From: an uncultured Clostridia bacterium | Lineage (GTDB): Bacteria; Bacillota; Clostridia; Oscillospirales; Acutalibacteraceae | Direction: 5' to 3' | Assembly (NCBI GenBank): GCA_937876205.1 | Contig: CALEII010000052.1 | Location: 381 to 64,380 of the forward strand | Length of the DNA: 64,000 bases | In this document: piece by piece, positions 9,633 to 58,159 of the stretch | Numbering within the stretch: position 1 is the stretch's first letter | How the letters are laid out: each line of letters begins with the position of its first letter | Position numbers and translations under genes: made by a program | Notes under the pieces: model-generated | Told to the model about the DNA's origin: nothing | The model's input: only the letters and a program-made list of their open reading frames with translations | The model's database searches: none

Positions 9633-9724
9633 TGTCTTTTTCTCCTTTGAAAAAATATAATGTGTCTTCTTTTTTACTGGCACTCGCAGTACTGTAAGAA
9701 GCAATTGCCTGAAAAATATTTCGA

Positions 9725-9870: not shown

Positions 9871-9937
9871 TTATCACAGAAGCAGATTTATTGCAACAAA
9901 AATGTAAATATTTGGCTCTAAAAAAATAATATTATTG

Positions 9938-23347: not shown

Positions 23348-23423
23348 TGGAGCTGCTAACCGGATTTGAACCGGTGACCTCATCCTTACCAAGGATGCAC
23401 TCTACCGACTGAGCTATAGCAGC
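23348..23423 (-). tRNA. tRNA-Thr (anticodon GGT), CCA encoded
   Basis: The reverse complement folds as a cloverleaf: acceptor GCTGCTA/TAGCAGC, anticodon stem CATCC/GGATG with loop TTGGTAA, T-arm ACCGG TTCAAAT CCGGT. Confidence 0.92.
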
Positions 23424-27962: not shown

Positions 27963-28634
27963 CTATAATTCATATATACCTGAGTCAAGAACAACGATTT
28001 CTTTATCCTTGAATCTGAAGTATTTGTTTACCGGCTCATTGAACTCTATATAATCTGACACGTCAAGAGTATCAATGTTTATGCGTCTGATTTCATAGGA
28101 AGCCTTGTTGCAGACATACAGCTCATTATCGTAGCAGGAGACTGAAATAGGCATATTGAACGCCGTATTATCATCACCGCCTATACGCATAACGATTTTC
28201 TGTGCTGTGATTGAATATCTGATAACTGCATTTCTCTGAGGAATTACACACCAGATGCTGTTGCCGTCAAAGGCTGCATCTCTTGCCGGTGCGTTGTTGT
28301 AGAAAAGGTCACCTGTTTTCAGTACCTTGCCTTTTTCATCAAAATGACCTACTTCACCTGTGGGGTAGATGATCACTGTATGATGATTGGGCAGCTTCAC
28401 TGTTTCACATGATATAAAATCACCGAGCCGTGAAGAAATTTTTTCATATGCCATACCGAATTTATTCAGCAGATATACACTTTTTGTAACTGTTGTTATT
28501 TCACCGGAAAAGGCATCGTAGCTGAAAAATGAAACTTTATTTACACCGTCATCTTTTTTTTCACTTTTTACAAATATGAGACCTGCTGAAAAGGGGACAA
28601 TATCAATAACATTTACGTTAAGTATCCTTTTCAT
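27963..28634 (-). CDS. hypothetical protein, translationally coupled to rex
   Basis: The start was moved to ATG 28634, which overlaps the rex stop (ATGA) and is preceded by SD ggagga. No recognisable motif. Repetitive beta-strand-like sequence. Confidence 0.6.
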   Translation of the reverse strand: MKRILNVNVIDIVPFSAGLIFVKSEKKDDGVNKVSFFSYDAFSGEITTVTKSVYLLNKFGMAYEKISSRLGDFISCETVKLPNHHTVIIYPTGEVGHFDEKGKVLKTGDLFYNNAPARDAAFDGNSIWCVIPQRNAVIRYSITAQKIVMRIGGDDNTAFNMPISVSCYDNELYVCNKASYEIRRINIDTLDVSDYIEFNEPVNKYFRFKDKEIVVLDSGIYEL

Positions 28635-29275
28635 TGAAGTTCCTCCGAATTTGTAATGTTGTAGCAAAGTGTCATCAGACTGTCGTTGAGGTGGACATTT
28701 TCAACCAGCACATCGGGGTGGTCATCGTGAATGTTATAATGGCTGAAATTCCAGAAAGCTTTTATTCCGCTGTCAACAAGCTTTTGAGTTACTTCCTTGC
28801 CTGCATTTGAGGGGATACAGAGAATAGCAGCTGTGGGGCTGTATTTTTTGCAGAAATCTTCAACAGTGTCAAAGCTTCTTACTTTTATGTTGTTGATTTC
28901 AAGTCCTTCAAGATTTTTATCTGAATCAAAAATTGCAGACAGCTCAAAGCCTTTTGTCTGAAAATTAAGATGCTGTGCAATTGCTCTGCCGAGATTGCCT
29001 GCACCCACCAGAATAACACTGTAGCTGTTTTCTATGCCGATTATATTACCTATGCTTTTTCTGAGCTCTTCAATTTTATAACCGTAGCCCTGCTGACCGA
29101 AGCCGCCGAAGTGATTAAGGTCCTGTCTTATCTGTGAAGCTGTAAGCCCCATTCTCTCAGCCAGGTTTTTTGAAGATATTTTTTCAATTCCTTCTTTCTG
29201 AAGAATACCCAGAAAACGGTGATATCTCGGCAATCTTGATATGACTGACTTTGGAATTGTGTTATTATTTTTCAT
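28631..29275 (-). CDS. rex: redox-sensing transcriptional repressor Rex
   Basis: IPKSVISRLPRYHRFL winged-helix N-terminus and Rossmann motif ILVGAGNLG. Start taken as ATG 29275; the ORF-track TTG at 29308 would overlap icd. Confidence 0.88.
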   Translation of the reverse strand: MKNNNTIPKSVISRLPRYHRFLGILQKEGIEKISSKNLAERMGLTASQIRQDLNHFGGFGQQGYGYKIEELRKSIGNIIGIENSYSVILVGAGNLGRAIAQHLNFQTKGFELSAIFDSDKNLEGLEINNIKVRSFDTVEDFCKKYSPTAAILCIPSNAGKEVTQKLVDSGIKAFWNFSHYNIHDDHPDVLVENVHLNDSLMTLCYNITNSEELQ

Positions 29276-29294
29276 AAATCTGACCTTTTCCGAA

Positions 29295-30458
29295 TCAGAG
29301 CTTTTCAACAGTATCCATTACATACTGACCGAATTCACGGCAGGTGCATCCGTTGTCTCTGCCTGTTATTGTCATTTTCTTCTCTGTAAGCATACAGATG
29401 TCAAGAGCCTTTTCAAGCTTGTCAGCCTCTGCCTGCTTGCCGATGTGTGAAAGAAGCATTACAGCAGCTCTGAGCATTGAGCAGGGGTCAGCATACTGAG
29501 CTCTGCCTTCTTTTACCATTCTGGGAGCTGAGCCGTGAATTGCTTCAAACATAGCATACTTCTTACCCAGGTTAGCAGAACCTGCAGTGCCTACGCCGCC
29601 CTGGAATTCAGCAGCTTCGTCTGTGATGATGTCACCGTAGAGGTTGGGGAGGATGAATACCTTGAAATCTGTTCTTCTCTTGGGGTCGATAAGTTTAGCT
29701 GTTGTGATATCAATATACCATTCATCTGTTGTGATTTCGGGGTAGTCTTTACCGACTTCTTTACAGAGATTGAGGAACTTACCGTCTGTTGTTTTGATAA
29801 CATTGGCCTTCTGGATGATAGAAACTCTGTCCTTCTTGTTGTTTCTTGCGTAGTCGTAAGCAAGCTTTGCAATTCTCTGACAGCCTTCTGTTGTTGTTAC
29901 AACGAAGTCAAATGCGAGCTCATCGTCAACATTTACACCCTTTGAACCGACTGCATAAGCACCTTCTGTGTTCTCACGGAAGAATGTCCAGTCAATGCCC
30001 TGTTCGGGAACCTTTACGGGACGCACATTTGCGAACAGGTCAAGAGCCTTACGCATAGCAACGTTTGCGCTTTCGATGTTGGGAAGACCGTCACCTGCCT
30101 GAGGTGTTGTTGTAGGGCCCTTGAGGATAACATCACAAGCCTTGAGCTCTTCAAGAACGTCATCAGGAATAGCTTTCATATGGGCAACACGGTTTTCAAT
30201 GGTGAGGCCGTCAATGTCTTTGAAAACGATTTTGCCAGAATCAACATCATCTTTAAGAAGATATTTGAGCACAGTTGCAGCCTCGTGTGTGATTGTGGGG
30301 CCGATGCCGTCACCGCCGCATACGCCGATGATGATCTGTTCTTTATTTGCGAAATCTGTAAATTCTTTTACTGACTTGATTTTTTCATTTCTTTCTGCCT
30401 GTTCTCTTACGAGAGCTTCAAATTTTTCAACGGCAGCCTTGATATTTGCTTCTGTCAT
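29295..30458 (-). CDS. icd: isocitrate dehydrogenase (isocitrate/isopropylmalate dehydrogenase family)
   Basis: Family motifs NLYGDIITDEAA and GSAP. Sits immediately downstream of aconitase. Start taken as ATG 30458 (SD aagggtga). Confidence 0.8.
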   Translation of the reverse strand: MTEANIKAAVEKFEALVREQAERNEKIKSVKEFTDFANKEQIIIGVCGGDGIGPTITHEAATVLKYLLKDDVDSGKIVFKDIDGLTIENRVAHMKAIPDDVLEELKACDVILKGPTTTPQAGDGLPNIESANVAMRKALDLFANVRPVKVPEQGIDWTFFRENTEGAYAVGSKGVNVDDELAFDFVVTTTEGCQRIAKLAYDYARNNKKDRVSIIQKANVIKTTDGKFLNLCKEVGKDYPEITTDEWYIDITTAKLIDPKRRTDFKVFILPNLYGDIITDEAAEFQGGVGTAGSANLGKKYAMFEAIHGSAPRMVKEGRAQYADPCSMLRAAVMLLSHIGKQAEADKLEKALDICMLTEKKMTITGRDNGCTCREFGQYVMDTVEKL

Positions 30459-30514
30459 TTTTTTCACCCTTACAATTTTTTAATTGCGAATTTTGTCGGT
30501 TTTACCCCGACAAA

Positions 30515-32449
30515 TTACTTGTTTGCGCCTGTGTAATTGAGAAGTCCGCCGAAAGTGAGCATATTCTTCTGTCTTGCGGTGAAACCACCGGCAAGAACAT
30601 ATTCTTCACCCTTTGTTTCGTTAACAAGAACAACATCTGTGTCATTAAGAATTGCAGACTTGATGTCCTTGAGTGTAACTACATCGAACTTGTCAATTTT
30701 ATCGTAATCCTCAGCATTTTTGAATGTGAGAGGAATGATACCTGAGTTGATAAGGTTATTTACGTGAATTCTTGCAAATGATTTTGCAACAACAGCTCTG
30801 ATGCCAAGGTAAAGAGGAACAAGAGCTGCGTGTTCTCTTGATGAGCCCTGACCGTAGTTTGCACCGCCTACAATGATACCGCCGCCCATCTTTTTGCAGT
30901 TTTCTGCAAAGTCTTCGTCACACTGTCTGAAACAGAACTGTGAAAGGTGAGGTACGTTTGAACGGTAGGGGAGAATCTTTGCACCTGCAGGCATAATATG
31001 GTCTGTTGTGATATTGTCTCCTACCTTGAGCATAACCTTTGTTGAAACGGAGTCTGTAAGAGCTGTGCCAAGGGGAACGCTCTTGATGTTGGGACCGTAG
31101 ATAACATCTACACCGGGAGCTTCTTCACTTGTTGCGGGAAGTTCAACCATATTGTCATTGATAAGGAACTTCTCGGGCATAGGGAATACGGGCATTTCGC
31201 CGAGAGCCTTTGCGGGGTTTGTGAGAACGCCTGTTACAGCTGATGCAGCTGCAACCTCGGGGCTTACAAGGTAGATGCCGGCATCTGCTGTACCGCTTCT
31301 GCCTTCAAAGTTTCTGTTGAATGTACGAAGTGAAACGCCCTTTGAGTTGGGTGACTGACCCATACCGATACAGGGACCGCAGGCACTTTCAAGAATTCTC
31401 GCACCTGCAGCAATCATATCTGCAAGAGCACCGTTTTCTGCGAGCATTGTGAGAACCTGTTTTGAGCCGGGAGCGATTGAAAGGCTTACATTCGGATGTA
31501 CCTTTTTGCCCTTGAGGATGTGAGCAACCTTCATCATATCCATAAGAGATGAGTTTGTACAGGAACCGATACAAACCTGATCAATTGTGATTTCACCGAT
31601 TTCATCAACTGATTTTACATTGTCGGGCATATGGGGCATTGCAGCCATGGGAACAAGCTCTGAAAGATTGATTTCAACAACCTTGTCATAAACTGCATCT
31701 TCGTCAGCAATAAGCTCAACCCAGTCTTCTTCTCTGTCCTGAGCCTTGAGGAATGCCTTTGTGACATCGTCTGAGGGGAACACCGATGTTGTTGCACCAA
31801 GCTCAGCACCCATATTTGTGATAGTTGCTCTTTCGGGAACTGAAAGTGTAGCAACGCCTTCACCTGTGTATTCAATGATTCTGCCTACACCGCCCTTGAC
31901 GGAGAGGATTTCAAGAACCTTGAGAATAACGTCTTTTGCAGCAACCCAGGAGGGGAGCTTGCCTGTAAGATTTACCTTTACGATTTCGGGCATTGTGATG
32001 TAATATGTGCCGCCGCCCATAGCAACTGCAACATCAAGACCGCCTGCACCCATAGCGAGCATACCGATACCGCCGCCTGTGGGAGTATGGCTGTCTGAGC
32101 CTAAGAGTGTCTTGCCGGGCTTGCCGAATCTTTCAAGATGAACCTGATGACAGATGCCGTTGCCTGGTCTTGAGAAACGGATGCCTCTCTTTTTTGCAAC
32201 AGTCTGTATAAATCTGTGGTCATCAGCGTTTTCAAAGCCGTTCTGAAGTGTGTTATGGTCAATATAAGCAACTGAGAGTTCTGTCTTTACTCTTTCGATG
32301 CCCATAGCTTCAAACTGAAGATATGCCATTGTGCCTGTAGCATCCTGAGTGAGAGTCTGATCGATACGAAGGCCGATTTCTTTGCCCTTTATCATTTCAC
32401 CCTCAACAAGATGGCTTTTTATAAGTTTTTCTGCAATAGTGTAACCCAT
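30515..32449 (-). CDS. aconitate hydratase
   Basis: Fe-S cluster ligand motifs GSCTNS and CGPCIG, plus a swivel domain. The start was moved to ATG 32449 (SD ggagga). Confidence 0.9.
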   Translation of the reverse strand: MGYTIAEKLIKSHLVEGEMIKGKEIGLRIDQTLTQDATGTMAYLQFEAMGIERVKTELSVAYIDHNTLQNGFENADDHRFIQTVAKKRGIRFSRPGNGICHQVHLERFGKPGKTLLGSDSHTPTGGGIGMLAMGAGGLDVAVAMGGGTYYITMPEIVKVNLTGKLPSWVAAKDVILKVLEILSVKGGVGRIIEYTGEGVATLSVPERATITNMGAELGATTSVFPSDDVTKAFLKAQDREEDWVELIADEDAVYDKVVEINLSELVPMAAMPHMPDNVKSVDEIGEITIDQVCIGSCTNSSLMDMMKVAHILKGKKVHPNVSLSIAPGSKQVLTMLAENGALADMIAAGARILESACGPCIGMGQSPNSKGVSLRTFNRNFEGRSGTADAGIYLVSPEVAAASAVTGVLTNPAKALGEMPVFPMPEKFLINDNMVELPATSEEAPGVDVIYGPNIKSVPLGTALTDSVSTKVMLKVGDNITTDHIMPAGAKILPYRSNVPHLSQFCFRQCDEDFAENCKKMGGGIIVGGANYGQGSSREHAALVPLYLGIRAVVAKSFARIHVNNLINSGIIPLTFKNAEDYDKIDKFDVVTLKDIKSAILNDTDVVLVNETKGEEYVLAGGFTARQKNMLTFGGLLNYTGANK

Positions 32450-32484
32450 ATTGTCCTCCGTTTTTACATTAAAATACATTATAT

Positions 32485-35863: not shown

Positions 35864-36964
35864 TTACTTATTCATAAAGTGTTTTAAAGCTAAAGCTGAG
35901 GCTGTTGCAATTCCTGCTGTCAGGAGAATTTTTTTACCGAGCTTTATTCCTTCGGAAACGGATGAAGGGGAGTGTGTGTATACAAATTCTTTCGCAGGCC
36001 ATTCAAGACGGAAATTATCAATATCCTTTGCAGTAACGGTGAATGTTTCGTATCTGTCAGGACTGTTTTCATAAATATCAAACACTCTGCCGCCTCTGTT
36101 TTTGCCGGGGCCGTAGATGTTGAAGCCCATTCCTTGAGTATAGCCCAGGTCAAGACTGCCGTGCTTCACAATAAAGCTGTTGTTGTGGTCGTGACCAAAG
36201 AAAAGACCGAGAACATCACCTTTTTCTTTGAGTGCTTCAACCTGTCTGCCTTTTTCGTCGGGTGATGCTGCATTTTCACCCATAAAAGAGCGCTCAGAAA
36301 CTGCGTATGGGGGAAGTCTGTAATAGCTGTCTGCAAATTTTCCCGCACCCTGCAGTGCTTTGTATGTTCCTTTCTTGACTTTCACAAAACAATCATAAAT
36401 ATCAGCGGGCGGAATATGCTGAAAAGCAAGAGCAGGTATAAAACTGCCGTTTTTTTCGGCAAGCTCATCTCTTTTTACGATATATTTATCAATAAGCTCA
36501 TTTTTTACGGGTAAATATTTCCCATTGACTTTTAAGCCGGAATCAAAACAATAAACACAGAATTTCGCAGTGGCATTATTGTCATAAACTGGGATGCAGT
36601 CAAAGTCATAGTTTTCGCCGATAAAATTATCATATAACTTATATATATTCCATTGAAATTCAGCATCAGCTTCTCCGAAAACATCGTGGTTGCCGAAAAC
36701 AGCTGTGAAAGGAATTCCTGATTCCTTTATCGGTGCGAGAATATTATTAAGTGTAATTGCCGCATTTGTCTTGCTGTCACCATGAGCCATTGTGATTCCG
36801 TAACCTTTTATCTGGTCACCTGTAAGAACAATAAGGTCAGGCTGTGTTTTTGCAATAATTTCTCTTGTAAGATTGACTGTGTCAGGGTTTGTTCTTGTAA
36901 TTTCCTGAATATCTGATAACTGAAGTATTCTGAATCTGCCGTTATTGAATCTGAGTTTTGTCAT
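35864..36964 (-). CDS. calcineurin-like metallophosphoesterase with C-terminal membrane anchor
   Basis: The start was moved to ATG 36964 (SD ggggtga), because the ORF-track extension runs through tRNA-Glu. Motifs LSDIQ, LTGDQ, GNHD and GHDHNN. Confidence 0.82.
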   Translation of the reverse strand: MTKLRFNNGRFRILQLSDIQEITRTNPDTVNLTREIIAKTQPDLIVLTGDQIKGYGITMAHGDSKTNAAITLNNILAPIKESGIPFTAVFGNHDVFGEADAEFQWNIYKLYDNFIGENYDFDCIPVYDNNATAKFCVYCFDSGLKVNGKYLPVKNELIDKYIVKRDELAEKNGSFIPALAFQHIPPADIYDCFVKVKKGTYKALQGAGKFADSYYRLPPYAVSERSFMGENAASPDEKGRQVEALKEKGDVLGLFFGHDHNNSFIVKHGSLDLGYTQGMGFNIYGPGKNRGGRVFDIYENSPDRYETFTVTAKDIDNFRLEWPAKEFVYTHSPSSVSEGIKLGKKILLTAGIATASALALKHFMNK

Positions 36965-36982
36965 ATAATCACCCCGTAAAAT

Positions 36983-37014
36983 AAAAAAGCACTTCAGAAC
37001 CGAAGTGCTTTTTT
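36983..37014 (-). terminator. rho-independent terminator downstream of tRNA-Glu
   Basis: Stem AAAAGCACTTC / GAAGTGCTTTT. A T-run follows on the minus strand. Confidence 0.7.
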
Positions 37015-37015
37015 G

Positions 37016-37090
37016 TGGTGACCCGGACGAGAATCGAACTCGTGTTACCGCCGTGAAAGGGCGGTGTCTTGACCGCTTGACCACCGGGCC
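37016..37090 (-). tRNA. tRNA-Glu (anticodon TTC), CCA encoded
   Basis: The reverse complement is GGCCCGGTGGTCAAGCGG...CCGCC CTTTCAC GGCGG...ACGAG TTCGATT CTCGT CCGGGTC ACCA. Confidence 0.92.
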
Positions 37091-37117: not shown

Positions 37118-37194
37118 TGGTAGCGGCAATCGGATTTGAACCAATGACCTGTCGGGTATGAACCGAATGCTCTAGCCAGCTGAGCTATGCCGCC
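37118..37194 (-). tRNA. tRNA-Met (anticodon CAT; elongator-like), CCA encoded
   Basis: The reverse complement is GGCGGCATAGCTCAGCTGGCTAGAGC, with anticodon loop TTCATAC and T-arm ATTGG TTCAAAT CCGAT. It resembles Bacillus elongator tRNA-Met, but a lysidine-modified Ile2 identity cannot be excluded. Confidence 0.85.
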
Positions 37195-47774: not shown

Positions 47775-47804
47775 AAAAATCAAAGCTGTACGGTATGTAC
47801 AGCC
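47775..47804 (-). terminator. rho-independent terminator of the arg-car operon
   Basis: Stem GCTGTAC / GTACAGC. A T-run follows on the minus strand. Confidence 0.7.
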
Positions 47805-47817
47805 TTGAAAATATATT

Positions 47818-50800
47818 TTAGTATTCTATAACGCCCGTGAAGATAAGGTCTGTTGTGCCTTCAAGAGTAATCTGATCATCCGTATAGTTGACAATCAGGT
47901 CGCCGCCCTTGAGCTTAACAACGATATCTTTGCCTTTTTCAATGTAGCCGAGTTCACAAGCTGCTGCAACTGCTGCACAAGCGCCTGTACCGCAGGCGTA
48001 TGTTTCACCGTTGCCTCTTTCCCATACTCTCATTCGAAGAGTTCTTGAATCAACAACTCTTACGAATTCTGTGTTGATTTTTTCGGGGAAGTATTTTGCA
48101 TTTTCAAATCCGGGTCCGATTTCCTTAAGGTTGTAAGCATCGATATGAGTACCGAATACTACACAGTGAGGATTACCTACATTTACACAAGTAACGTTGT
48201 ATTCCTTGCCGTCAACAACTATGGGCTGATTAACAACTTTACCCTTTGAAATGATGTTTGTGGGAATCTTTTCAGCTTCGAATTCTGCCTTACCCATATA
48301 AACCTTAACAGATTTTACTCGGCCGTTTTCTGTGTAAAGGTGAATTCTCTTTAAGCCTACAGGTGTTTCGATTGTCAGATGTGTCTTGTCAACGATGCCG
48401 TTGTCATAGAGGTATTTACCTGCGCATCTCAGACCGTTACCTGCAATGTAGCCCTTTGAGCCGTCCTTATTGTACATAAGCATCTTTGCATCAGCGATAT
48501 CTGACTTTTCTATAAGAACAATACCGTCTGAACCGATACCGTAATGTCTGTTGCAGAAGTTTATAGCAAGAACCTCGGGAGAAGTGATTTCACCGTTAAG
48601 ATTATCAAAGAAGATGAAGTCATTGCCTGAGCCCTGCATCTTAGCGAATTTAAGCTTTGTGGGCTCTGTACGCATTTCATTGATGTTTACAAGCTCTGTA
48701 TTAGCCTGAGTAAAGCCGCTTGCAAGAATGTCAGCAAGAACGTTTGCTGTGTCAATTGATGTAAGTGTTGCAACTGAGAGCTGAAGAGCACGTCTGTGAA
48801 GCTTGATGAAGTCATCAACAACATCAAGGGGAGTGCCTGTGTAAACGATATACTTGATCTTGCCGCTTTCAAGAAGGTCCATACTTGTGTTTGATTCATC
48901 ATAAAGCTTGTTGACAACAGTAACATCAATGTCAACTGAGCCGATAACCTTTGCTGTGCCTTCTGTAGCGTAAATCTTGAGACCAAGGTCGTGGAACTTT
49001 CTTGCAAGGTCAACAACTTCGGGCTTGTCAGCATCCTTGACAGTGATGTAAACACCCATTTCCTTGCCGAGTTCCTTGGGAGCAATTTCAAAGCCTGCTG
49101 AAACGAGACCCTTGAAGAGTGCTTCGTCGATTGTTTTGCCCACACCGAGAACTTCACCTGTTGATTTCATTTCGGGACCAAGGCTTGAGTTTGCATCGAG
49201 AAGCTTCTCAAATGAGAATACGGGAACCTTGACTGCAAAGTAAGGGGGAGTCTTGTAAAGACCTGTGCCGAAGCCGAGGTCAACGAGGGGAGTACCGGTC
49301 ATAACCTTTGTTGCGATATCAACCATAGGTACGCCTGTAACCTTACTGATATAAGGAATGGTTCTTGAAGCTCTGGGGTTAACCTCGATAACATAAAGCT
49401 CATTCTCATAAATGAGGTACTGAATGTTAACAAGACCCTTTGTACCGAGAGCAAGAGCAAGATTTGTTGAGCAGTCAATGATTGTCTGCTTCATTGTGTC
49501 ACGCAGATTATAAGGGGGATAAACTGCAATTGAGTCACCTGAGTGAACACCTGCACGTTCAACGTGCTGCATAATACCGGGGATAAGAACATCCTTGCCG
49601 TCTGAAATAACGTCAACTTCAAGCTCAGAGCCCATCATATATTTGTCAACAAGAACGGGATTCTCAATTTTACCTGAAAGAATGATGTTCATATACTTTC
49701 TTACGTCTTCGTCATTATAGGCAATAGTCATATTCTGACCGCCGATAACGTACGAGGGACGAAGAAGTACGGGATATGTGAGGGTGTGGGCTGCATCAAG
49801 AGCTTCTTCAAGTGTGAGAACACCCATACCCTTAGGTCTTCTGATGCCGAATTTTTCAAGAAGAGCATCAAACTTTTCTCTGTCTTCGGCAATGTCAATA
49901 CCTTCTGCAGATGTACCGAAAATTCTGAAACCGTTGTCATCGAGGAATTTTGTCAGCTTGATAGCTGTCTGGCCGCCGAAAGCAACAACGACACCTTCTG
50001 GCTGTTCTGTCTTGATGACATTAAGAACATCTTCGGGAGTGAGAGGCTCAAAGTAGAGTCTGTCTGCTGTGTCAAAGTCAGTTGAAACAGTTTCGGGGTT
50101 GTTGTTGATGATAACAACCTCATAACCGAGGTTCTTGAGAGTCCATACACAGTGAACGGACGAGTAGTCGAATTCAATACCCTGACCGATTCTGATAGGA
50201 CCTGAACCGAGAACGATAATCTTTTTCTTCGTGTTGCCCTTGAGATATTCTCTTGCTTCACAGTCTTTGTCATATGTGGAGTAGAAATAAGGTGTCTGAG
50301 CCTTATATTCAGCTGCACAGGTGTCAACCATCTTGTAAACAGCATCACGGGGATTTTCTATCTTTGAACCGCTGATTCTTTCAATGGCGGCATCAGTATA
50401 GCCGTATTTCTTACCTTTGAGGTAAAGCTCATCTGTAAGACCGTTTGCAATTTCAGCTTCATAGTTTGCAAGATTTCTGAGCTTTTCAATGAACCATTCA
50501 TCAATCTTTGTGATGTCGTGAATAGTTTCTGTTGAAACGCCTCTCTTGATAGCTTCAAAAACTGTGAAAAGACGGATATCATCAACATCGTGAAGCTTTG
50601 CTACGATGTCAATTTCGGGATCCTGAACCTTCTTGAAATTGAGTGTATCAAGTGAAATTTCAGCACCTCTTACAGCCTTCATAATAGCAGCTTCAAAGCA
50701 GGGAGCGATTGACATAACCTCGCCTGTTGCCTTCATCTGAGTGCCGAGCTTTCTCTTTTCGTTGATGAACTTGTCAAAGGGCCATTTAGGAAGCTTAATT

Positions 50801-51861
50801 ACGCAATAGTCAACTGTGGGCTCGAAGCAAGCAAATGTCTCACCTGTGACGTCGTTTCTGATTTCATCGAGAGTGTAGCCGAGAGCAACTTTTGTTGCAA
50901 CCTTAGCAATGGGATAGCCTGTTGCCTTTGATGCGAGTGCAGATGACCGTGAAACACGGGGGTTAACCTCAATAACAGCATATTCAAATGATTCGGGATT
51001 AAGCGCAAACTGACAGTTACAGCCACCCTCGATGCCGAGAGCTTCAATAATCTTGAGTGAAGCGTTACGAAGCATCATAAACTCTTTATTTGAAAGAGTA
51101 ACAGCGGGAGCGATAACAATACTGTCACCTGTATGAACACCGACGGGATCGAAGTTTTCCATTGAGCAGACAGCAATTGCATTACCTGCGCTGTCACGCA
51201 TTGCTTCAAATTCAATTTCTTTCCAGCCGTAGATATATTTTTCAACAAGAATCTGATTGATAGGTGAGAGAAGAAGACCGTTGTTTACAATAGGCATAAG
51301 CTCTTCTTCATTGTAAGCAACACCGCCACCTGCACCGCCAAGGGTGAAAGCGGGACGGATGATAACGGGGAAGCCGATTCTCTTTGCAATCTCACGTGCC
51401 TGTTCAGCTTCTGTTGCGATATCAGAAGGAATGCAGGGCTGACCGATTGATTCCATTGTTTCTTTGAAAAGCTCTCTGTCTTCAGAACGGTCAATAGCTT
51501 CGGCATTGGTACCGATGAGCTTTACGCCGTGCTTTGCAAGGAAGCCGCTCTTTGCAAGCTGCATACCGATGGTAAGACCTGTCTGACCGCCGAGGCCGGC
51601 AAGAACTGAGTCGGGTTTTTCTTTTTCGATGATTCTCATAACAGTTTCTTCTGTCAGAGGTTCAAGATAGATTTCATCCGCATTTGCATTATCTGTCATA
51701 ATGGTAGCAGGGTTTGAGTTGACAAGTATTACGTCAAGACCTTCATCTTTAAGGATTTTACAAGCCTGAGTACCTGCGTAGTCAAATTCGGCAGCCTGTC
51801 CGATAACGATAGGACCTGAACCGATAACGAGAACCTTCTTTATATCTTTATTAAGCGGCAT
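47818..51861 (-). CDS. carB: carbamoyl-phosphate synthase large subunit fused to a C-terminal diaminopimelate-epimerase-like domain
   Basis: 1347 aa in one uninterrupted frame. Residues 1 to ~1067 are a full CarB (two ATP-grasp halves plus an MGS-like allosteric domain). The last 280 aa (47821-48660) carry DapF motifs: KMQGSGNDF, NKDGS....AGNGLRC, GNPH, ERGNGETYACGTGA. SD gggaggtga; the start overlaps the carA stop (TAATG). Confidence 0.9.
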   Translation of the reverse strand: MPLNKDIKKVLVIGSGPIVIGQAAEFDYAGTQACKILKDEGLDVILVNSNPATIMTDNANADEIYLEPLTEETVMRIIEKEKPDSVLAGLGGQTGLTIGMQLAKSGFLAKHGVKLIGTNAEAIDRSEDRELFKETMESIGQPCIPSDIATEAEQAREIAKRIGFPVIIRPAFTLGGAGGGVAYNEEELMPIVNNGLLLSPINQILVEKYIYGWKEIEFEAMRDSAGNAIAVCSMENFDPVGVHTGDSIVIAPAVTLSNKEFMMLRNASLKIIEALGIEGGCNCQFALNPESFEYAVIEVNPRVSRSSALASKATGYPIAKVATKVALGYTLDEIRNDVTGETFACFEPTVDYCVIKLPKWPFDKFINEKRKLGTQMKATGEVMSIAPCFEAAIMKAVRGAEISLDTLNFKKVQDPEIDIVAKLHDVDDIRLFTVFEAIKRGVSTETIHDITKIDEWFIEKLRNLANYEAEIANGLTDELYLKGKKYGYTDAAIERISGSKIENPRDAVYKMVDTCAAEYKAQTPYFYSTYDKDCEAREYLKGNTKKKIIVLGSGPIRIGQGIEFDYSSVHCVWTLKNLGYEVVIINNNPETVSTDFDTADRLYFEPLTPEDVLNVIKTEQPEGVVVAFGGQTAIKLTKFLDDNGFRIFGTSAEGIDIAEDREKFDALLEKFGIRRPKGMGVLTLEEALDAAHTLTYPVLLRPSYVIGGQNMTIAYNDEDVRKYMNIILSGKIENPVLVDKYMMGSELEVDVISDGKDVLIPGIMQHVERAGVHSGDSIAVYPPYNLRDTMKQTIIDCSTNLALALGTKGLVNIQYLIYENELYVIEVNPRASRTIPYISKVTGVPMVDIATKVMTGTPLVDLGFGTGLYKTPPYFAVKVPVFSFEKLLDANSSLGPEMKSTGEVLGVGKTIDEALFKGLVSAGFEIAPKELGKEMGVYITVKDADKPEVVDLARKFHDLGLKIYATEGTAKVIGSVDIDVTVVNKLYDESNTSMDLLESGKIKYIVYTGTPLDVVDDFIKLHRRALQLSVATLTSIDTANVLADILASGFTQANTELVNINEMRTEPTKLKFAKMQGSGNDFIFFDNLNGEITSPEVLAINFCNRHYGIGSDGIVLIEKSDIADAKMLMYNKDGSKGYIAGNGLRCAGKYLYDNGIVDKTHLTIETPVGLKRIHLYTENGRVKSVKVYMGKAEFEAEKIPTNIISKGKVVNQPIVVDGKEYNVTCVNVGNPHCVVFGTHIDAYNLKEIGPGFENAKYFPEKINTEFVRVVDSRTLRMRVWERGNGETYACGTGACAAVAAACELGYIEKGKDIVVKLKGGDLIVNYTDDQITLEGTTDLIFTGVIEY

Positions 51862-52916
51862 TACTTGTCACCTCCCATAAGTGAAATAAATTTATCGTAA
51901 ATTTTGTCTGTGTCAACTGTAGCTGAGAAACAATCGGGTGTGAACTGAATTGAAAATGCCTTTGCATATTCAAGCCCTTCAATTGTGTTATCACTGACAT
52001 TTGTGAAAAGAACTTTTGCATTTGCAGCAGCTTCGCTTACAACATATCCGTGGTTCTGATGTGTTGCGAAAACCTTGCCGTCGTCCATATTTCTAACGGG
52101 AACACTGCCGCCTCTGTGACCGAACTTCATTTTTGAAGTTTTACCACCCTGAGCCAGAGCCATAACCTGATGACCGAGACCGAAGCCGAACATAGGCTTA
52201 TCAGCCATAATAGATTTAACTTCTGCAATAAGTTCAGTGTTTTCTTCAGGGTTTCCCGGGCCGTTTGTAACAACAACACCGTCGAATGTGCCCTCAAGAA
52301 TTTCAGAAGCCTTTGTGTTATAAGGGAATACAGTCACATTGCAGCCCTTTTCTGTAAGCTTTTCGATTGCATTTGCCGCAGCACCGCAGTCAAGCATTGC
52401 AACTGAATATTTTCCGTCTTCTGCTTCAAAATAAGCTTTTTTGTTTGATGCAACTGATGAGAGTGCATCTTTGATTTCATATGCTTTGAGTGCATCAAGG
52501 TCAACATTTGCAGGATTTTCTGTGATACAGGCATTCATAGCACCGTTTTCACGGACAAGCTTTGTAAGCTCTCTTGTGTCAACGTCGCATATTGCAATAA
52601 TGCCGTTTTCCTTGAGATAATCCTCAAGCCCGCCTTCGCATCTGAAGTTTGAAGGCATATCACAGATTTCTCTTGCAACATAGCCCTTAATGACAGGCTT
52701 GGCACCGTTTGTGTCTTCATTGATGATGCCGTAATTGCCGATAAGAGGGAATGTCTGAAGAACAATCTGACCGTAATAAGCGGCATCTGTAAGAGTTTCG
52801 ATGTAACCGACAACACCTGTTGTGAAAACAAGCTCGCCGACTGTTTCACCTGTTGCACCGTAACCCTTGCCCTCAAAAACGTGACCGTCTTCAAGTACAA
52901 TGTACATCTTTTTCAT
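51861..52916 (-). CDS. carA: carbamoyl-phosphate synthase small subunit homologue with degenerate glutaminase active site
   Basis: CarA N-domain and a GATase fold (SNGPGNP-type TNGPGNP). The nucleophile motif reads FGFGLGHQ instead of FGICLGHQ, and the His/Glu motif reads IQFTPD instead of (V/F)Q(Y/G)HPE. Confidence 0.85.
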   Translation of the reverse strand: MKKMYIVLEDGHVFEGKGYGATGETVGELVFTTGVVGYIETLTDAAYYGQIVLQTFPLIGNYGIINEDTNGAKPVIKGYVAREICDMPSNFRCEGGLEDYLKENGIIAICDVDTRELTKLVRENGAMNACITENPANVDLDALKAYEIKDALSSVASNKKAYFEAEDGKYSVAMLDCGAAANAIEKLTEKGCNVTVFPYNTKASEILEGTFDGVVVTNGPGNPEENTELIAEVKSIMADKPMFGFGLGHQVMALAQGGKTSKMKFGHRGGSVPVRNMDDGKVFATHQNHGYVVSEAAANAKVLFTNVSDNTIEGLEYAKAFSIQFTPDCFSATVDTDKIYDKFISLMGGDK

Positions 52917-52962: not shown

Positions 52963-53886
52963 TTACTGTTTTTCCTGATACTGTTCCTTCATAAGCTTAA
53001 CAAGAACAGCTTTCTGTGCATGAAGTCTGTTTTCAGCCTCTTCAAAGATTTCCTTTGCGTGTGCTTCAAATACTTCAGCAGTAATTTCTTCTTCTCTGTG
53101 AGCAGGTAAGCAGTGAAGAACCATTGCGTCAGGCTTTGCAACTGCCATAAGTGAGGAATTTATCTGATAGCCTGCGAATACTTTCTTTCTTTCTTCAGCT
53201 TCAGCTTCTTCACCCATTGAAGCCCATACGTCTGTGTAAAGCACGTCAGCATCCTTTGCAGCTTCATAAATGTCTGTTGTGAGTGTGAATTTACCTGTTT
53301 CGTTTGCCCATTTTACAATATCTGCATCAGGCTCATAGCCCTTGGGGCAAGCGACAGCAACATCCATACCTACCTTTATACAACCGACGATTAGTGAATT
53401 GCACATATTGTTGCCGTCACCGATGAATGTAAGCTTCATTCCCTTGAAGGTGTTCTTGAATTCACGGATTGTCATAAGGTCTGCAAGAACCTGACAGGGA
53501 TGAGCGTAGTCTGTAAGACCGTTGATGATGGGGATTGAACCGTAGTTTGCGAGCGTTTCAACCTCTTCCTGGTCGAATGTTCTTATCATAATACCGTCAA
53601 GGTAACGTGAGAGAACTCTTGCTGTGTCTTCAACAGGTTCGCCTCTGCCGAGCTGTGTGTTGGCGTTTGAAAGGAAAAGAGCTGAACCGCCGAGATCATA
53701 CATACCCACTTCAAAGGAAACTCTTGTTCTTGTTGATGACTTTGCAAAAATCATACCGAGAGTTTTGCCTTTGAGATAGTGATGCTCAATATTGTGCTTT
53801 TTTTCATATTTGAGCTGGTCTGCAAGGTTGAGTATTGAGAGAATTTCTTTCTCTGAATAGTCACCTAATTTAAGTAAATGTTTCAT
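52963..53886 (-). CDS. argF: ornithine carbamoyltransferase
   Basis: STRTR, HPCQ and HCLP motifs. Confidence 0.92.
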   Translation of the reverse strand: MKHLLKLGDYSEKEILSILNLADQLKYEKKHNIEHHYLKGKTLGMIFAKSSTRTRVSFEVGMYDLGGSALFLSNANTQLGRGEPVEDTARVLSRYLDGIMIRTFDQEEVETLANYGSIPIINGLTDYAHPCQVLADLMTIREFKNTFKGMKLTFIGDGNNMCNSLIVGCIKVGMDVAVACPKGYEPDADIVKWANETGKFTLTTDIYEAAKDADVLYTDVWASMGEEAEAEERKKVFAGYQINSSLMAVAKPDAMVLHCLPAHREEEITAEVFEAHAKEIFEEAENRLHAQKAVLVKLMKEQYQEKQ

Positions 53887-55046
53887 TCTTCAATTACCTC
53901 CGTGATTATATTCATAGCCTTCTCAAGCTCTTCGTCAGAGATGTTGAGAGGGGGAAGAAGTCTGATTTTTGTTTTTGCGGTAAGGGGAAGGACGCCTTTT
54001 TCGATGCATTTCATAACAACTTCTTTTGCGTCTTTTGTAGTTTCTATGCCGAGCATAAGTCCCATACCCGTTACACTTTTAACATTTTTGCATTCTTCAA
54101 GGCGTTTTCTGATGTATTCACCTTTTGCTCTGACACAAGCAAGGAATTTATCGTCAAGTCTTTTGACTATGTTTAAAGCACCTGCGGCAACAACGGGATT
54201 CATTCCGAACGTTGAGCCGTGTGAAGAGGGAGTCATTGTGTCTTTAGTCTTTTCGCCGAAGAGACATACACCCATCGGAAGACCGCCTGCAACACCTTTT
54301 GCTGTTGATACAAGGTCAGGCTCAATATCAAACTGCTGATATGCGTACATACTGCCTGTTCTGCCGTTGCCTGTCTGAACTTCGTCTATTATTACAAGTA
54401 TATCATATTTCTGACAGAATTCATATACTTTTTTTATAAAAATTTTATTTAAAGGAATAACTCCGCCTTCACCCTGTACCATTTCCATAATGACGGCACA
54501 GACATTCTCATTGTATACGCTCATAAATGAGTCGAAATTGTTAGCCTCTGCATATACAAAACCCTCCGGAAAGGGTCCGAAGGTTGTGTGGAAGACATCC
54601 TGACCTGTAGCCTTGAGAGTGGCAAGAGTTCTGCCGTGGAAGCTCTGGGTGAGTGAGATTATTACATTTCTGTCGGGATTCTCATATTTGTCAAGAGAAT
54701 ATTTTCTTGCAGCTTTTATAGCACATTCGTTGGCTTCTGCACCTGAGTTGCCGAAGAAACACTTCTTCATTCCTGATTTTTTACAAAGAAGCTCAGCAAG
54801 CTCCACACCGGGCTGTGTATAAAAGAGATTTGATGTGTGCTGAAGAGTGTTCAGCTGCTTTGTAACAGCTTCAACCCATTCCTTGTCACAGTAACCGAAA
54901 GCATTTACTCCGATGCCTGTGCCCATATCAATGTATTCCTTGCCGTTTTCATCAACGGCAACAGCCCCGTGACCGCTGACAAGGGTTACGGGGAATCTGC
55001 CGTATGTATTGGCAATATACTGTTTATCTTTTTCGATTGTTGTCAT
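53883..55046 (-). CDS. argD: acetylornithine aminotransferase
   Basis: Class III aminotransferase motifs (GSGAEANE-type NSGAEANE, DEVQTG, STAKG). ATGA overlap with argF. Confidence 0.9.
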   Translation of the reverse strand: MTTIEKDKQYIANTYGRFPVTLVSGHGAVAVDENGKEYIDMGTGIGVNAFGYCDKEWVEAVTKQLNTLQHTSNLFYTQPGVELAELLCKKSGMKKCFFGNSGAEANECAIKAARKYSLDKYENPDRNVIISLTQSFHGRTLATLKATGQDVFHTTFGPFPEGFVYAEANNFDSFMSVYNENVCAVIMEMVQGEGGVIPLNKIFIKKVYEFCQKYDILVIIDEVQTGNGRTGSMYAYQQFDIEPDLVSTAKGVAGGLPMGVCLFGEKTKDTMTPSSHGSTFGMNPVVAAGALNIVKRLDDKFLACVRAKGEYIRKRLEECKNVKSVTGMGLMLGIETTKDAKEVVMKCIEKGVLPLTAKTKIRLLPPLNISDEELEKAMNIITEVIEE

Positions 55047-55055
55047 AATTACACC

Positions 55056-55910
55056 TTACTCTACAAACATCGTGCCGATACCTTCATCGGTAAGAGTTTC
55101 AATGAGGATTGCGTGGGGGATTCTGCCGTCAATGATGAAGACCTTCTTCACACCCATTCTGATAGCCTCTGTACAGCACTGTACCTTGGGAATCATACCG
55201 CCTGATATAACACCGTCGTGCATAAGCTCTCTCGCATCGCTGACATAGAGCTTCTTGATAAGTGTTGAAACATCATCCTTGTCACGCAGAAGTCCCGGAA
55301 TGTCAGTCATATTGATAAGACTTTCTGCCTTTAATGCACCTGCAATGTATGCTGCAGCAGTGTCTGCATTTATGTTATATGAATTGTTCTCTTCATCAAA
55401 AGCAACAGTTGAAATAACGGGGATATAATTCTTGTCAAGAATATCTGTGATGATTTCTGTGTTGACTTCTGTTATATCACCGACAAAACCGTGAACATCG
55501 TCAAGCTGTTTAGCCTTTATCATCTGACCGTCAATACCGCAGATGCCGACAGCCTTGCCGCCCATATTGCCTATTTTATTAACAAGATTCTTGTTGATTT
55601 TGCCTGCAAGAACCATCTGAACAGCCTCAATTGTTTCTTCGTCTGTTACACGAAGACCGTCAATGAATTCACTCTTTTTGCCTGTTTTTGTGAGAAGCTC
55701 ATTGATTTCGGGGCCGCCGCCGTGCACAAGCACAACCTTTATACCGATAAGCGAAAGCAGTACAAGGTCACCGATAACTGCTTCCTTGAGCTCTTCGCTT
55801 ATCATTGCATTTCCGCCGTATTTTACGACGATTATTTTATTTCTGTATTCCTGTATATAAGGGAGAGCCTGAGTGAGTATTTCGGCTCTCTGTGCATTTG
55901 TAATATCCAT
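55056..55910 (-). CDS. argB: acetylglutamate kinase
   Basis: VVKYGGNAM and VLVHGGGP motifs. Confidence 0.92.
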   Translation of the reverse strand: MDITNAQRAEILTQALPYIQEYRNKIIVVKYGGNAMISEELKEAVIGDLVLLSLIGIKVVLVHGGGPEINELLTKTGKKSEFIDGLRVTDEETIEAVQMVLAGKINKNLVNKIGNMGGKAVGICGIDGQMIKAKQLDDVHGFVGDITEVNTEIITDILDKNYIPVISTVAFDEENNSYNINADTAAAYIAGALKAESLINMTDIPGLLRDKDDVSTLIKKLYVSDARELMHDGVISGGMIPKVQCCTEAIRMGVKKVFIIDGRIPHAILIETLTDEGIGTMFVE

Positions 55911-57124
55911 TATGTTCTGTAATCTCCGTTTATTTTAACATAGTCGTAAGTCAGGTCGCAGCCTCTGGCAACAGCTGTTGAGTCACCGTCATTGAGGTCA
56001 ACATTTACCTTGATTTCATCACAGAGAAGAATTTCTTTTGCCTTATCTTCACTGAAAGGAACGCCAGCACCGTTCTTGCATACTTCAATTGTGCCTTTTT
56101 CACTTGTGAATGAAACATCAATCTTTGTAACATCAACATCTGCACCACTGTAGCCTATAGCACACAGTACACGTCCCCAGTTTGCATCGGCACCGAACAT
56201 TGCAGCCTTGAAAAGTGATGAGCAGATAACTGATTTTGCAACTGTTTTTGCAGTGTGCCAGTCTTTACCGCCTGATACAAAGCATTCAACAAGCTTTGTT
56301 GCGCCTTCACCGTCTTTTGCAATAGCTCTGCAGAGCTTTTCTGTAATCATTGCAAGAGCCTTTGTGAAAACTTCAAAGTCTTCGTTTTCTTCGGTGATAA
56401 GTTCGTTTCCTGCCATACCGTTTGCCATAACGGAAACCATATCGTTTGTTGATGTATCACCGTCAATGCTTATCATATTGAAGCTCTTCTGAGCATCTGA
56501 ATAAAGAGCCTTGTGAAGCATCTCGGGAGAAATAGCTGCATCTGTTGTTATGAAAACGAGCATTGTTGCCATATTCGGGTGAATCATACCTGAGCCCTTT
56601 GCAATACCGCCCATTTTACATTCTTTTCCTCCGAGAGTGAAGCTTACGGCAAATTCCTTTTTGACTGTATCCGTTGTCATAATTGCTTCTGCAGCGTTTG
56701 TGCTGTTGTCATAGCCGAGCTCAGAAACAAGCTGAGACATACCGTCTTCAATTGGAGTGATTTCAAGAGGCTGACCGATAACACCTGTTGATGCAACAAT
56801 GACATCCTTTGCATCAACTCCTGTGGCTTCTGCTGTGATTTCACACATCCTTGTTGCAATTTCAACACCGTCAGCGTTGCAGGTGTTTGCATTTCCGCTG
56901 TTGCATATCATAGCCTGAGCTGTGCCGTCTGAGATGTTGTCTTTTGTAACGTAAATCGGAGCACCCTTTACGAGATTGAGAGTATATATGGCTGCAGCAG
57001 ATGCCTTGCAGTCACTTACGATAAGCGCAAGGTCACGCTTTGTCTTGTTTTTTCTGATTCCGCAGTGAATACCACTTGCCTTGAACCCTTTTGGAGCACA
57101 GACTCCGCCGTTTATGTATTCCAT
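55910..57124 (-). CDS. argJ: bifunctional ornithine acetyltransferase / N-acetylglutamate synthase
   Basis: Autoprocessing site ATMLVFITTDA. Start taken as ATG 57124, because the ORF-track TTG at 57130 sits too close to the SD aaagga. Confidence 0.9.
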   Translation of the reverse strand: MEYINGGVCAPKGFKASGIHCGIRKNKTKRDLALIVSDCKASAAAIYTLNLVKGAPIYVTKDNISDGTAQAMICNSGNANTCNADGVEIATRMCEITAEATGVDAKDVIVASTGVIGQPLEITPIEDGMSQLVSELGYDNSTNAAEAIMTTDTVKKEFAVSFTLGGKECKMGGIAKGSGMIHPNMATMLVFITTDAAISPEMLHKALYSDAQKSFNMISIDGDTSTNDMVSVMANGMAGNELITEENEDFEVFTKALAMITEKLCRAIAKDGEGATKLVECFVSGGKDWHTAKTVAKSVICSSLFKAAMFGADANWGRVLCAIGYSGADVDVTKIDVSFTSEKGTIEVCKNGAGVPFSEDKAKEILLCDEIKVNVDLNDGDSTAVARGCDLTYDYVKINGDYRT

Positions 57125-57138
57125 AGTCAAAATTCCTT

Positions 57139-58077
57139 TCAGATGTCAAGTGATGTTGTTTCGTCAATTCCCATTGAAATGTTCATACACTGAACTGCGG
57201 CACCCGAAGCACCTTTTCCGAGATTGTCAAAAACACTTGTTATAAATATTCTTTCTTCATTGCCTGAAATGAGTATCTTCATTGAATCTTTACCGCTTTT
57301 TTCGTTGGCAGAAACCATTGATACGGGAGTTTCACCGCCATATAACGGAAGAACTTCAATAAACTTTGAGTCTTTGTAGTGATTTGCAAATACAGAATGA
57401 ATTTCAGCAATGCTTGTCTTATTCAGAAGCTTTGTGAAAAGGGGAATAGTCGTAGCCATTCCGCTGTAATAGTCATCAACAATGGGAGTGAAAATGGGGA
57501 AGTCGTCGAGCCCTGTGATAACTTTCATTTCCTTGAGATGCTTGTGATTCTGTGTCAGACCGTACTGTCTGGGAGCAAACAGATCGGAAGTTTTTTCATT
57601 CTCATAGTCATTTATCATTTTTTTGCCGCCGCCGCTGTAGCCGGTGAGTGAATGACACACAACGGGGTAGTCGGAAGGCATAATTCCCTTTGCAATAAGG
57701 GGATAAACTATTGAAATGAATCCGCTTGCGTGACAGCCGGGGACTGCAATGCGCTTTGATGATGAAATCTTGGCTCTGTGTTCATCTGAAAGCTCTGCAA
57801 AACCGTATGCCCAGTCGGGATTTGTTCTGTGTGCTGTTGATGTGTCAATGATAACAGTACTGTCATTTGCACACAGAGAAACAGATTCTCTTGAGGCTTC
57901 ATCGGGCAGACAAAGAAATGTGATGTCACTCATATTTATCAGGCGTCTTCGTTCTTCTCTGTCTTTTCTCAGATTTTCGTTTATTGAGAGCAGCTCAATG
58001 TCTTCTCTTTTGCTCAGATGGTCAAAAAGCCTGAGTCCTGTTGTGCCCTGATTGCCGTCAATGAATACCTTATACAT
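57139..58077 (-). CDS. argC: N-acetyl-gamma-glutamyl-phosphate reductase
   Basis: The start was moved to ATG 58077 (SD aggag). GNQGTTG NAD-binding motif and active-site PGCHASG. Confidence 0.9.
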   Translation of the reverse strand: MYKVFIDGNQGTTGLRLFDHLSKREDIELLSINENLRKDREERRRLINMSDITFLCLPDEASRESVSLCANDSTVIIDTSTAHRTNPDWAYGFAELSDEHRAKISSSKRIAVPGCHASGFISIVYPLIAKGIMPSDYPVVCHSLTGYSGGGKKMINDYENEKTSDLFAPRQYGLTQNHKHLKEMKVITGLDDFPIFTPIVDDYYSGMATTIPLFTKLLNKTSIAEIHSVFANHYKDSKFIEVLPLYGGETPVSMVSANEKSGKDSMKILISGNEERIFITSVFDNLGKGASGAAVQCMNISMGIDETTSLDI

Positions 58078-58109
58078 AAAAAATACTCCTATTAAAAATC
58101 TATTATAAT

Positions 58110-58137
58110 ATTTTACTCTTTTTCGTGTGAATGTCAA
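58110..58137 (-). promoter_or_regulatory. sigma-A type promoter of the arg operon
   Basis: On the minus strand: TTGACA, 16-nt spacer, TAAAAT, about 30 nt upstream of the argC ATG. Confidence 0.55.
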
Positions 58138-58145
58138 TAAAATTC

Positions 58146-58159
58146 TGAATATTTATGCA
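58146..58159. promoter_or_regulatory. candidate ARG box (ArgR/AhrC operator half)
   Basis: TGAATATTTATGCA versus the core consensus TGAATwwwwATTCA (1 mismatch). It lies immediately upstream of the -35 element. No convincing second box was seen. Confidence 0.3.

Follow-up and report, generated by a model that had tools for sequence, protein, structure and literature searches.

A carbamoyl phosphate synthetase of a clostridial arginine operon has a small subunit without the Cys-His-Glu glutaminase triad and is predicted to depend on ammonia

Introduction

We describe herein an arginine operon in a 64,000-nucleotide stretch of DNA from an uncultured Clostridia bacterium of the Acutalibacteraceae (contig CALEII010000052.1; hereafter, the window), in which the carbamoyl phosphate synthetase (CPS) small-subunit gene, carA, encodes a protein devoid of the Cys-His-Glu triad that defines the glutamine-hydrolysing CPS small subunit (EC 6.3.5.5). 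This gene and its product are referred to as carA* and CarA*. E. coli CPS cannot hydrolyse glutamine without Cys269 and His353 (PMC6245113), and all eubacterial CPS have so far been found to depend on glutamine (PMC8121099). Our analyses of sequence conservation, selection, and predicted structure suggest that the operon probably encodes an ammonia-dependent CPS with a non-catalytic scaffold small subunit, and that the CPS of argCJBDF-carA*-carB::dapF would most likely be, in functional terms, EC 6.3.4.16 rather than EC 6.3.5.5.

Results

The product of carA* matches CPSase_sm_chain (PF00988; 160 bits, E 2e-47) and the glutamine amidotransferase (GATase) family (PF00117; 118 bits, E 4e-34), and it scores 369 bits against the NCBIfam CarA equivalog NF009475 (cut-off 221), which places it in the CarA sequence family. 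It also reaches 361.5 bits against TIGR01368, a family that is glutamine-hydrolysing by name and has a cut-off of 307; thus, automatic annotation would name this triad-less protein glutamine-hydrolysing. In a phmmer search of the PDB, the E. coli CarA structures 1a9x_B and 1c30_B matched CarA* at E of about 1e-72, with the CarA* segments 'pmfgfGlghq' and 'fsiqfTpDc' aligned on the E. coli segments 'pvfgiClghq' and 'fsfqgHpEa'. A MAFFT alignment including 120 database homologues (122 sequences) agreed with phmmer in placing Gly246, Thr326, and Asp328 in the columns of Cys269, His353, and Glu355; the E. coli reference sequences of CarA and DapF were validated by the residues at numbered positions and by their agreement with the PDB alignments. 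The preliminary description of this DNA, made from the sequence alone, had claimed exactly these substitutions, and the two independent alignments confirm them: the motifs are not shifted, no Cys, His, or Glu is recovered, and the codons and coordinates given there are exact (Table 1). Its statement that the rest of the subunit is intact holds only in part, as the fold and the motifs TNGPGNP and KMKFGHRGG are kept, but at least nine further conserved residues of the glutamine site and the tunnel entry are replaced. Neither the recurrence of triad loss nor the DapF-like extension of CarB, both described below, was noticed there.

The CarA* clade comprises 39 proteins (homologues P0001-P0039 minus the fragment P0035, plus the query) with identity down to about 59%. 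Hereafter, three-letter states such as GTD, GSE, or SYG denote the residues at E. coli CarA positions 269, 353, and 355. The triad is missing in 39/39 members: position 269 is Gly throughout (100%), position 353 is Thr in 90%, and position 355 is Asp in 97%; most are GTD, and a few are GAD, GSD, or GSE. The triad codons differ synonymously among genomes (GGT/GGC, ACA/ACT, and GAT/GAC), and the carA* open reading frame (ORF) is intact in all 39 members over about 40% divergence, showing neither frameshift nor stop. According to GTDB, the hosts are uncultured Acutalibacteraceae or 'Clostridia bacterium' metagenome-assembled genomes (MAGs), which originate from the hindgut of roe deer (rectum and colon), water buffalo (colon), yak (caecum), and sheep (rectum). 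The sequencing error for which the preliminary description had allowed is excluded by the recurrence of identical residues, with synonymous codon variation, in dozens of independent assemblies. We give practically no weight to an artefact in the wider sense (sequencing, assembly, or misalignment of the motifs), since the two alignments are concordant and a related triad-less case is present in an isolate genome, that of Thermosyntropha lipolytica DSM 11003 (WP_073092557.1).

Moreover, carA* is under purifying selection and is not a pseudogene. The dN/dS ratio (nonsynonymous to synonymous substitution rates; Nei-Gojobori) within the clade was 0.11-0.19 for the GATase-like domain, 0.03-0.17 for the CarA N-domain, and 0.01-0.03 for CarB, and the survey of related genomes that the preliminary description had proposed thus found the substitutions both conserved and under selection. 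The AlphaFold2 model of CarA* (50 homologues; mean pLDDT 91.4, pTM 0.90), in which residues 331-333 are the sole low-confidence stretch, matched E. coli CarA first (TM 0.91) and human CPS1 second (TM 0.86), indicating, at the level of a predicted structure, that the subunit keeps the CarA fold.

The replacements extend beyond the triad. In E. coli numbering, the clade carries M36V, P46A, S47A, K202A/T, N294S, Q295V, A356C, G359A, and P360T, all nine at residues that are at least 95% conserved among the 67 triad-bearing relatives of the same alignment; following the E. coli structural literature, we assign these positions to the glutamine site and to the beginning of the ammonia tunnel. Ser47, which in E. 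coli CarA presumably contacts the glutamine or thioester carbonyl, and K202 are both Ala in CarA*, while G241, Q273, N311, and G313 are retained; from the E. coli structures, we count as glutamine-site residues Ser47 and Gln273, together with four positions that act as backbone donors (G241, L270, N311, and G313). The neighbouring glutamine-site residues are kept in 67/67 triad-bearing homologues of the MAFFT alignment. The GATase domain also evolves faster in the triad-less lineages than in their triad-bearing sisters: between triad-less lineages its identity is ~50% at 92-93% CarB identity, as compared with 84% at 91% for the pair of triad-bearing loci L005 and L018. This pattern indicates that constraint in triad-less CarA has probably shifted away from catalysis.

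Loss of the triad is recurrent among relatives. A full HMMER scan was run over 1.84 billion cluster representatives, and among the 150 nearest 50%-identity clusters, which were scored, Cys-His-Glu occurred in only 34; about 100 of these representatives, one of them from a cultured species, are without the triad. Position 269 is Gly in 83% of the 99 full-length representatives without the Cys, and in the same set 17 different residues are found at 353 and likewise 17 at 355. Whereas S47, K202, Q273, and P360 drift in these proteins (S47 is kept in 17%, Q273 in 60%, and G313 in 64%), the residues G241, G271, H272, G292, Q310, H312, P354, and D114-T115-R116 are near-invariant; an invariant scaffold around a drifting site reads as the signature of a scaffold retained after catalysis was abandoned, and Gly may be favoured at the strained nucleophile elbow. 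Partial states (SHE, CYE, GHE, and SHA) are found in proteins closely related to triad-bearing ones. Several triad-less proteins are nevertheless annotated as 'glutamine-hydrolyzing', namely those of Ruminococcus sp. (MBE6826859.1, P0421) and Oscillospiraceae (MBQ7013865.1, P0422), MBQ8782684.1 (P0081), and the protein of the cultured T. lipolytica (P0347).

In a neighbour-joining tree built on CarB, GTD and GSE are grouped (89%), SYG then joins them (74%), and the triad-bearing L005 and L018 form the sister pair of this assembly (83%). The loci L004 (SHA), L026 (SIE), L029 (GYE), and the triad-bearing L030 branch around this assemblage without resolved order, and L028 (GAE) and then the unfused Ruminococcus locus L027 (GAV) are successive outgroups (100%). 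Given this topology, and provided that a lost triad is not regainable, at least four independent losses would have occurred in Oscillospirales CPS. The codons at the nucleophile position are TCT or TCA for Ser in SYG and GGT for Gly in GTD; we count each as one step from TGT, and hence the nucleophile was probably lost separately in these two sublineages. S47A, which is common to GTD, GSE, and SYG, may have been the first hit.

The phenomenon is not confined to arginine operons. In L027 (rumen Ruminococcus sp., ERZ28653841; 7681-16018), a triad-less CarA (Gly/Ala/Val) is encoded in a pyrC-pyrF-carA*-carB(1064 aa)-pyrK-pyrD operon, and in L029 carA*-carB::dapF lies beside pyrF; hence, triad loss extends beyond the arginine-operon CPS, in L027 to a CPS of the pyrimidine type. 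Within the Ruminococcus group, 114/121 relatives bear the triad and its loss is sporadic, with SHE and CYE intermediates. We considered a link to the classic ammonia-requiring Ruminococcus flavefaciens and rejected it, since proteins labelled R. flavefaciens are among the triad-bearing ones and only scattered relatives lack the triad.

The genes form a single operon in the order argC-argJ-argB-argD-argF-carA*-carB::dapF (Table 1). carA* lies directly upstream of carB, and the translational coupling of the two genes via TAATG, noted in the preliminary description, is present and kept in all the related loci examined. The triad-less GSE and SYG lineages and the triad-bearing L005 and L018 share this synteny, which extends to the NUDIX and MatE genes downstream; carA* is therefore the orthologue of a normal arg-operon carA and no stray paralogue. 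A second canonical carAB was not found within the 64-kb window, and a search for a canonical CarA of the same MAG via neighbouring NCBI protein accessions yielded no pair. Among relatives, the fused CPS is found in the arg operon, beside pyrF, or alone, and these varied contexts would fit a single CPS for all purposes as well as a specialised enzyme. An Rfam scan of the operon detected no leader and no riboswitch. In the ARG-box scan of the window, the total of matches was not above chance, and we regard the ARG-box-like site next to the -35 as no more than suggestive.

CarB is 1347 amino acids (aa) long because a DapF domain is fused at its C-terminus. The large subunit itself is complete, with the ammonia-tunnel gate residues C232, A251, and A314 conserved, and likewise R265, E217, and E219. 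In the allosteric domain, the equivalents of K954, T974, T977, and K993, presumably the nucleotide phosphate-site residues of E. coli CarB, are kept, and N1015, T1017, and Y1040 are replaced by Tyr, Gly, and Thr, respectively; the allosteric residues do not separate arginine-specific from general CPS.

The DapF-like domain does not possess both catalytic cysteines of diaminopimelate epimerase (DapF): Cys73 (H. influenzae/E. coli numbering) is replaced by Ala1140 (codon 48442-48444) and Cys217 is kept. It belongs to the DapF family by fold and by the presence of N11, N64, N157, N190, E208, and R209, which we take to be the diaminopimelate/substrate-binding residues. Loss of Cys73 with retention of Cys217 is seen in 100 of the 120 best homologues; Cys73 is Ala in most fused relatives, including triad-bearing ones, and Cys in L028, while standalone 279-aa DapF proteins in relatives keep both cysteines. 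The domain is strongly constrained (dN/dS 0.02-0.06), and the CarB-DapF fusion is widespread in Oscillospirales; our literature searches found no report of such a fusion. Its sequence suggests a second dead-looking module on the holoenzyme.

Two of the related loci show an interrupted carB: in L026 (GCA_054290425.1; 9900-10010) the gene carries an in-frame TAG (PPYYAV*VPVF), and in L030 (5900-6010) a run of N occupies the same spot. Many database '449-aa MGS+DapF' proteins begin at the conserved Met of GPEMKSTGE. We considered these proteins as a family of split CarB and rejected the idea, since the N run of L030 and the in-frame TAG of L026 are probably assembly or gene-calling artefacts; the recurrent break at one place suggests an assembly-prone region.

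Table 1. Features of the arginine operon and of its CPS genes (coordinates within the window).
Feature	Coordinates	Strand	Basis
ARG-box-like site TGAATATTTATGCA, adjoining the -35	58146-58159	-	sole 1-mismatch site of the window
Promoter-like site, TTGACA at 58137 with TAAAAT/TATAAT	58102-58137 (with the ARG-box-like site, 58102..58159)	-	sequence scan
argC; likely start ATG 58077, ribosome-binding site aggag 58086-58090	57139-58077	-	ORF and syntenic orthologues
argJ	55910-57130	-	ORF and syntenic orthologues
argB	55056-55910	-	ORF and syntenic orthologues
argD	53883-55046	-	ORF and syntenic orthologues
argF, ornithine carbamoyltransferase, consumer of carbamoyl phosphate	52963..53886	-	Pfam families of syntenic orthologues
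carA*, CPS small subunit, 351 aa	51861..52916	-	CPSase_sm_chain N-domain and class-I GATase-fold domain without Cys-His-Glu
Ala45-Ala46 at E. coli Pro46-Ser47; common to GTD, GSE, and SYG lineages	52779..52784	-	alignment
Gly246 codon GGT, E. coli Cys269 nucleophile position	52179..52181	-	alignments and codon check
Thr326 codon ACA, E. coli His353 position	51939..51941	-	alignments and codon check
Asp328 codon GAT, E. coli Glu355 position	51933..51935	-	alignments and codon check
'CFSATV' in place of the canonical 'ACSGPxD' loop that follows the former His/Glu, E. coli A356-H361, tunnel entry	51915..51932	-	alignment; sole low-confidence stretch of the AlphaFold2 model
TAATG, overlap of carA* stop and carB start (AAGTAATGCC)	51859..51863	-	identical in 17/17 related loci examined
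carB proper, aa 1-1060, complete large subunit	48682..51861	-	NF003671, 1434 bits
CarB allosteric domain	48652-49101	-	alignment to E. coli
DapF-like domain, CarB C-terminus, aa ~1071-1347	47818..48651	-	TIGR00652, 258 bits; PDB 2otn, E 1.5e-63
Terminator-like hairpin directly 3' of carB::dapF, operon end	47780..47808	-	sequence scan

Elsewhere in the window, a cobalamin riboswitch (RF00174, 42 bits; 9694-9891, minus strand) overlaps the annotated start of the DUF4430 ORF 9144-9863, whose true start is therefore probably further downstream. Three tRNA genes were found on the minus strand (37019-37090, 37121-37194, and 23351-23423); the metallophosphoesterase ORF 35864-37084 runs into the first of them, suggesting that its GTG start is over-extended. 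A gene for a Rex-like regulator (Put_DNA-bind_N and CoA_binding) lies directly downstream of the isocitrate/isopropylmalate dehydrogenase and aconitase genes (28631-32479, minus strand).

Discussion

We propose that CarA* is a pseudo-glutaminase that would have no glutaminase activity of its own and would be kept as a docking and stabilising partner that the large subunit needs, and perhaps also to form the entrance to the ammonia path. In the ammonia-rich, energy-limited ruminant hindgut, glutamine hydrolysis may have become dispensable; Ser47 would probably have been the first residue to go, the triad and the neighbouring glutamine-site and tunnel-entry residues would have decayed afterwards, Gly would have been fixed in the strained nucleophile elbow, and selection would have continued to act on the scaffold and the CarB interface. 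Direct use of NH3 would spare the ATP that glutamine synthetase consumes, a plausible saving in such a hindgut. The 'perforation' mutants of the E. coli enzyme, reportedly the work of Kim and Raushel in 2004, are said to open the ammonia tunnel; since the changes at M36, G359, P360, and H361 fall at perforation-mutant sites, one might speculate that the former pocket could be an entry for NH3. As cited in two reports, the E. coli large subunit on its own can form carbamoyl phosphate with NH3 as the donor, both in vitro and in vivo (PMC8121099, PMC3017870). E. coli CarA active-site and tunnel mutants lose the use of glutamine while the complex still uses ammonia (PMC6245113, PMC4655335), tunnel-blocked or -perforated variants have normal activity with ammonia, and human CPS1, with its dead GATase domain, takes external ammonia (PMC4655335). 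The preliminary description had already read the locus as an ammonia-dependent CPS with a structural-only small subunit, and all predictions of this reading that lend themselves to an in silico test turned out in its favour, so far as sequence can speak for the donor and for the role of the subunit.

Several observations weigh against this proposal. The triad-bearing orthologues L005 and L018 occupy the same syntenic locus, and habitat may not by itself account for the loss. E. coli-type CPS has a poor affinity for NH4+, and no CarB column was found with a substitution common to the triad-less lineages that could raise the affinity for NH3; we deduce dependence on ammonia from sequence and model evidence. 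In addition, conservation within the clade is still 95% or more at G241, G243, H272, Q273, N311, H312, G313, and Y314, and hence the pocket may still bind a ligand, in which case the subunit would not be purely structural. Their conservation in a domain that evolves fast, together with a dN/dS indicating that some function is retained, would suit a ligand-sensing pseudo-enzyme, in which the pocket binds glutamine or another amino acid uncleaved and allosterically tunes CarB as a sensor of nitrogen status. In the E. coli C269S variant, glutamine binding reportedly still has an effect on the large subunit, and such a role would be compatible with ammonia dependence. However, the clade has lost Ser47 and K202 as well as the loop that follows position 355, and the conserved residues may be mere fold determinants, while the drift of Q273, G313, and S47 in the 99 triad-less representatives indicates that conservation of the pocket is no general property of triad-less CarA; we consider a sensor unlikely. 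Still more doubtful is a holoenzyme built of two repurposed dead-enzyme modules, in which the DapF-like part would either sense diaminopimelate or an amino acid and gate CPS, or supply NH3 as a single-base eliminase; the presence of this module would then have rendered the glutaminase dispensable, and triad loss would for that reason recur in the CarB::DapF lineage.

The faster evolution of the GATase domain, three- to four-fold as compared with the triad-bearing sister pair, would also be expected of a functionless relic, with CarB::DapF acting alone and carA* either not yet lost or kept because its translation drives that of carB; B. thetaiotaomicron indeed appears to use an orphan CarB2 (PMC8121099). 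We hold a relic to be very unlikely, as dN/dS is well below 1 in both CarA domains, none of the 39 clade members has acquired a frameshift or stop over their divergence, the scaffold residues are near-invariant even in the 99 divergent representatives, and the model is confident and CarA-like. Purifying selection on the domain could likewise reflect a hydrolase that still draws ammonia from glutamine or another amide via a relocated or non-canonical nucleophile, e.g., Cys329 in 'TPDCFS', which is present in 90% of the clade. Yet Cys329 is Val in P0026, P0033, and P0034 and in GSE, Ser47 is gone, model confidence is lowest at the 331-333 loop, and the sister lineages carry G/S at 269, T/S/A/Y at 353, and D/E/G at 355, i.e., no alternative catalytic set is conserved, making continued hydrolysis extremely improbable.

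An ammonia-dependent CPS with a scaffold small subunit can be set beside several known systems. The Bacillus arginine-specific CPS is encoded inside the arg operon (argCJBD-carAB-argF) and has a canonical glutaminase and an unfused CarB; the locus described here is similar in that carAB is embedded beside argF with an ARG-box-like site at the promoter, but differs in that CarA* has no canonical glutaminase site and CarB is fused to the DapF-like domain. In function, the clostridial enzyme would resemble animal CPS I (EC 6.3.4.16; human CPS1, PDB 5dot/5dou), which likewise retains a dead GATase-fold domain, uses ammonia as the donor (as predicted here from sequence), and delivers its product to ornithine carbamoyltransferase. 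The analogy, drawn in the preliminary description, is apt, and the loss in CarA* is the more complete one: CPS1 is a single polypeptide that needs N-acetylglutamate and has only the Cys replaced (Ser294), keeping His and Glu (PMC4655335), whereas the clostridial enzyme has two subunits with the whole triad and several more residues replaced. CarA* arose independently inside clostridial CarA; it is neither part of a single fused polypeptide nor of animal CPS III/I descent, and the proteins closest to it are syntenic CarA of Clostridia. The E. coli mutants C269S (1c30), H353N (1a9x), and G359F (1m6v) are altered at the same positions, and these mutant structures are the best sequence and structural matches of CarA*; they are, however, laboratory-made from a glutamine-dependent enzyme, while CarA* shows a natural and fixed state in which the site has decayed further.

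Among bacteria, the only proposed ammonium-dependent CPS that we found in the literature is CarB2 of the gut anaerobe B. thetaiotaomicron, considered relevant under ample ammonium (PMC8121099). CarB2 lacks any small subunit and exists alongside a canonical CarAB, whereas the CarB described here is no orphan, its small subunit being present, coupled to carB, and kept in an apparently dead form; our literature searches found no description of a triad-less bacterial CarA. In the Pseudomonas-type aspartate transcarbamoylase, an inactive dihydroorotase subunit is mentioned as an obligatory structural partner (PMC6022934); it is a dead homologue from the same metabolic neighbourhood, although its fold and complex are different and the analogy is one of principle only. 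In Alcolapia fish, the glutamine-type CPS III is reported to have shifted independently towards the use of ammonia (PMC7657897); unlike the two-subunit clostridial CPS, this enzyme is eukaryotic, fused, and dependent on N-acetylglutamate.

At stake is a rule, found in reviews and in recent functional genomics, by which every bacterial CPS depends on glutamine and a dead glutaminase is confined to animal CPS I (PMC4655335, PMC8121099). Our data point to a large, fast-evolving, and hitherto unrecognised group of CPS small subunits from bacteria, devoid of a glutaminase site, which arose many times in anaerobic Clostridia. [quoted passage not shown] The family would then represent a natural replicate of the transition from CPS III to CPS I, for which Ser-only, His-only, and full-loss intermediates all exist, and would provide a clean case of pseudo-enzyme retention.

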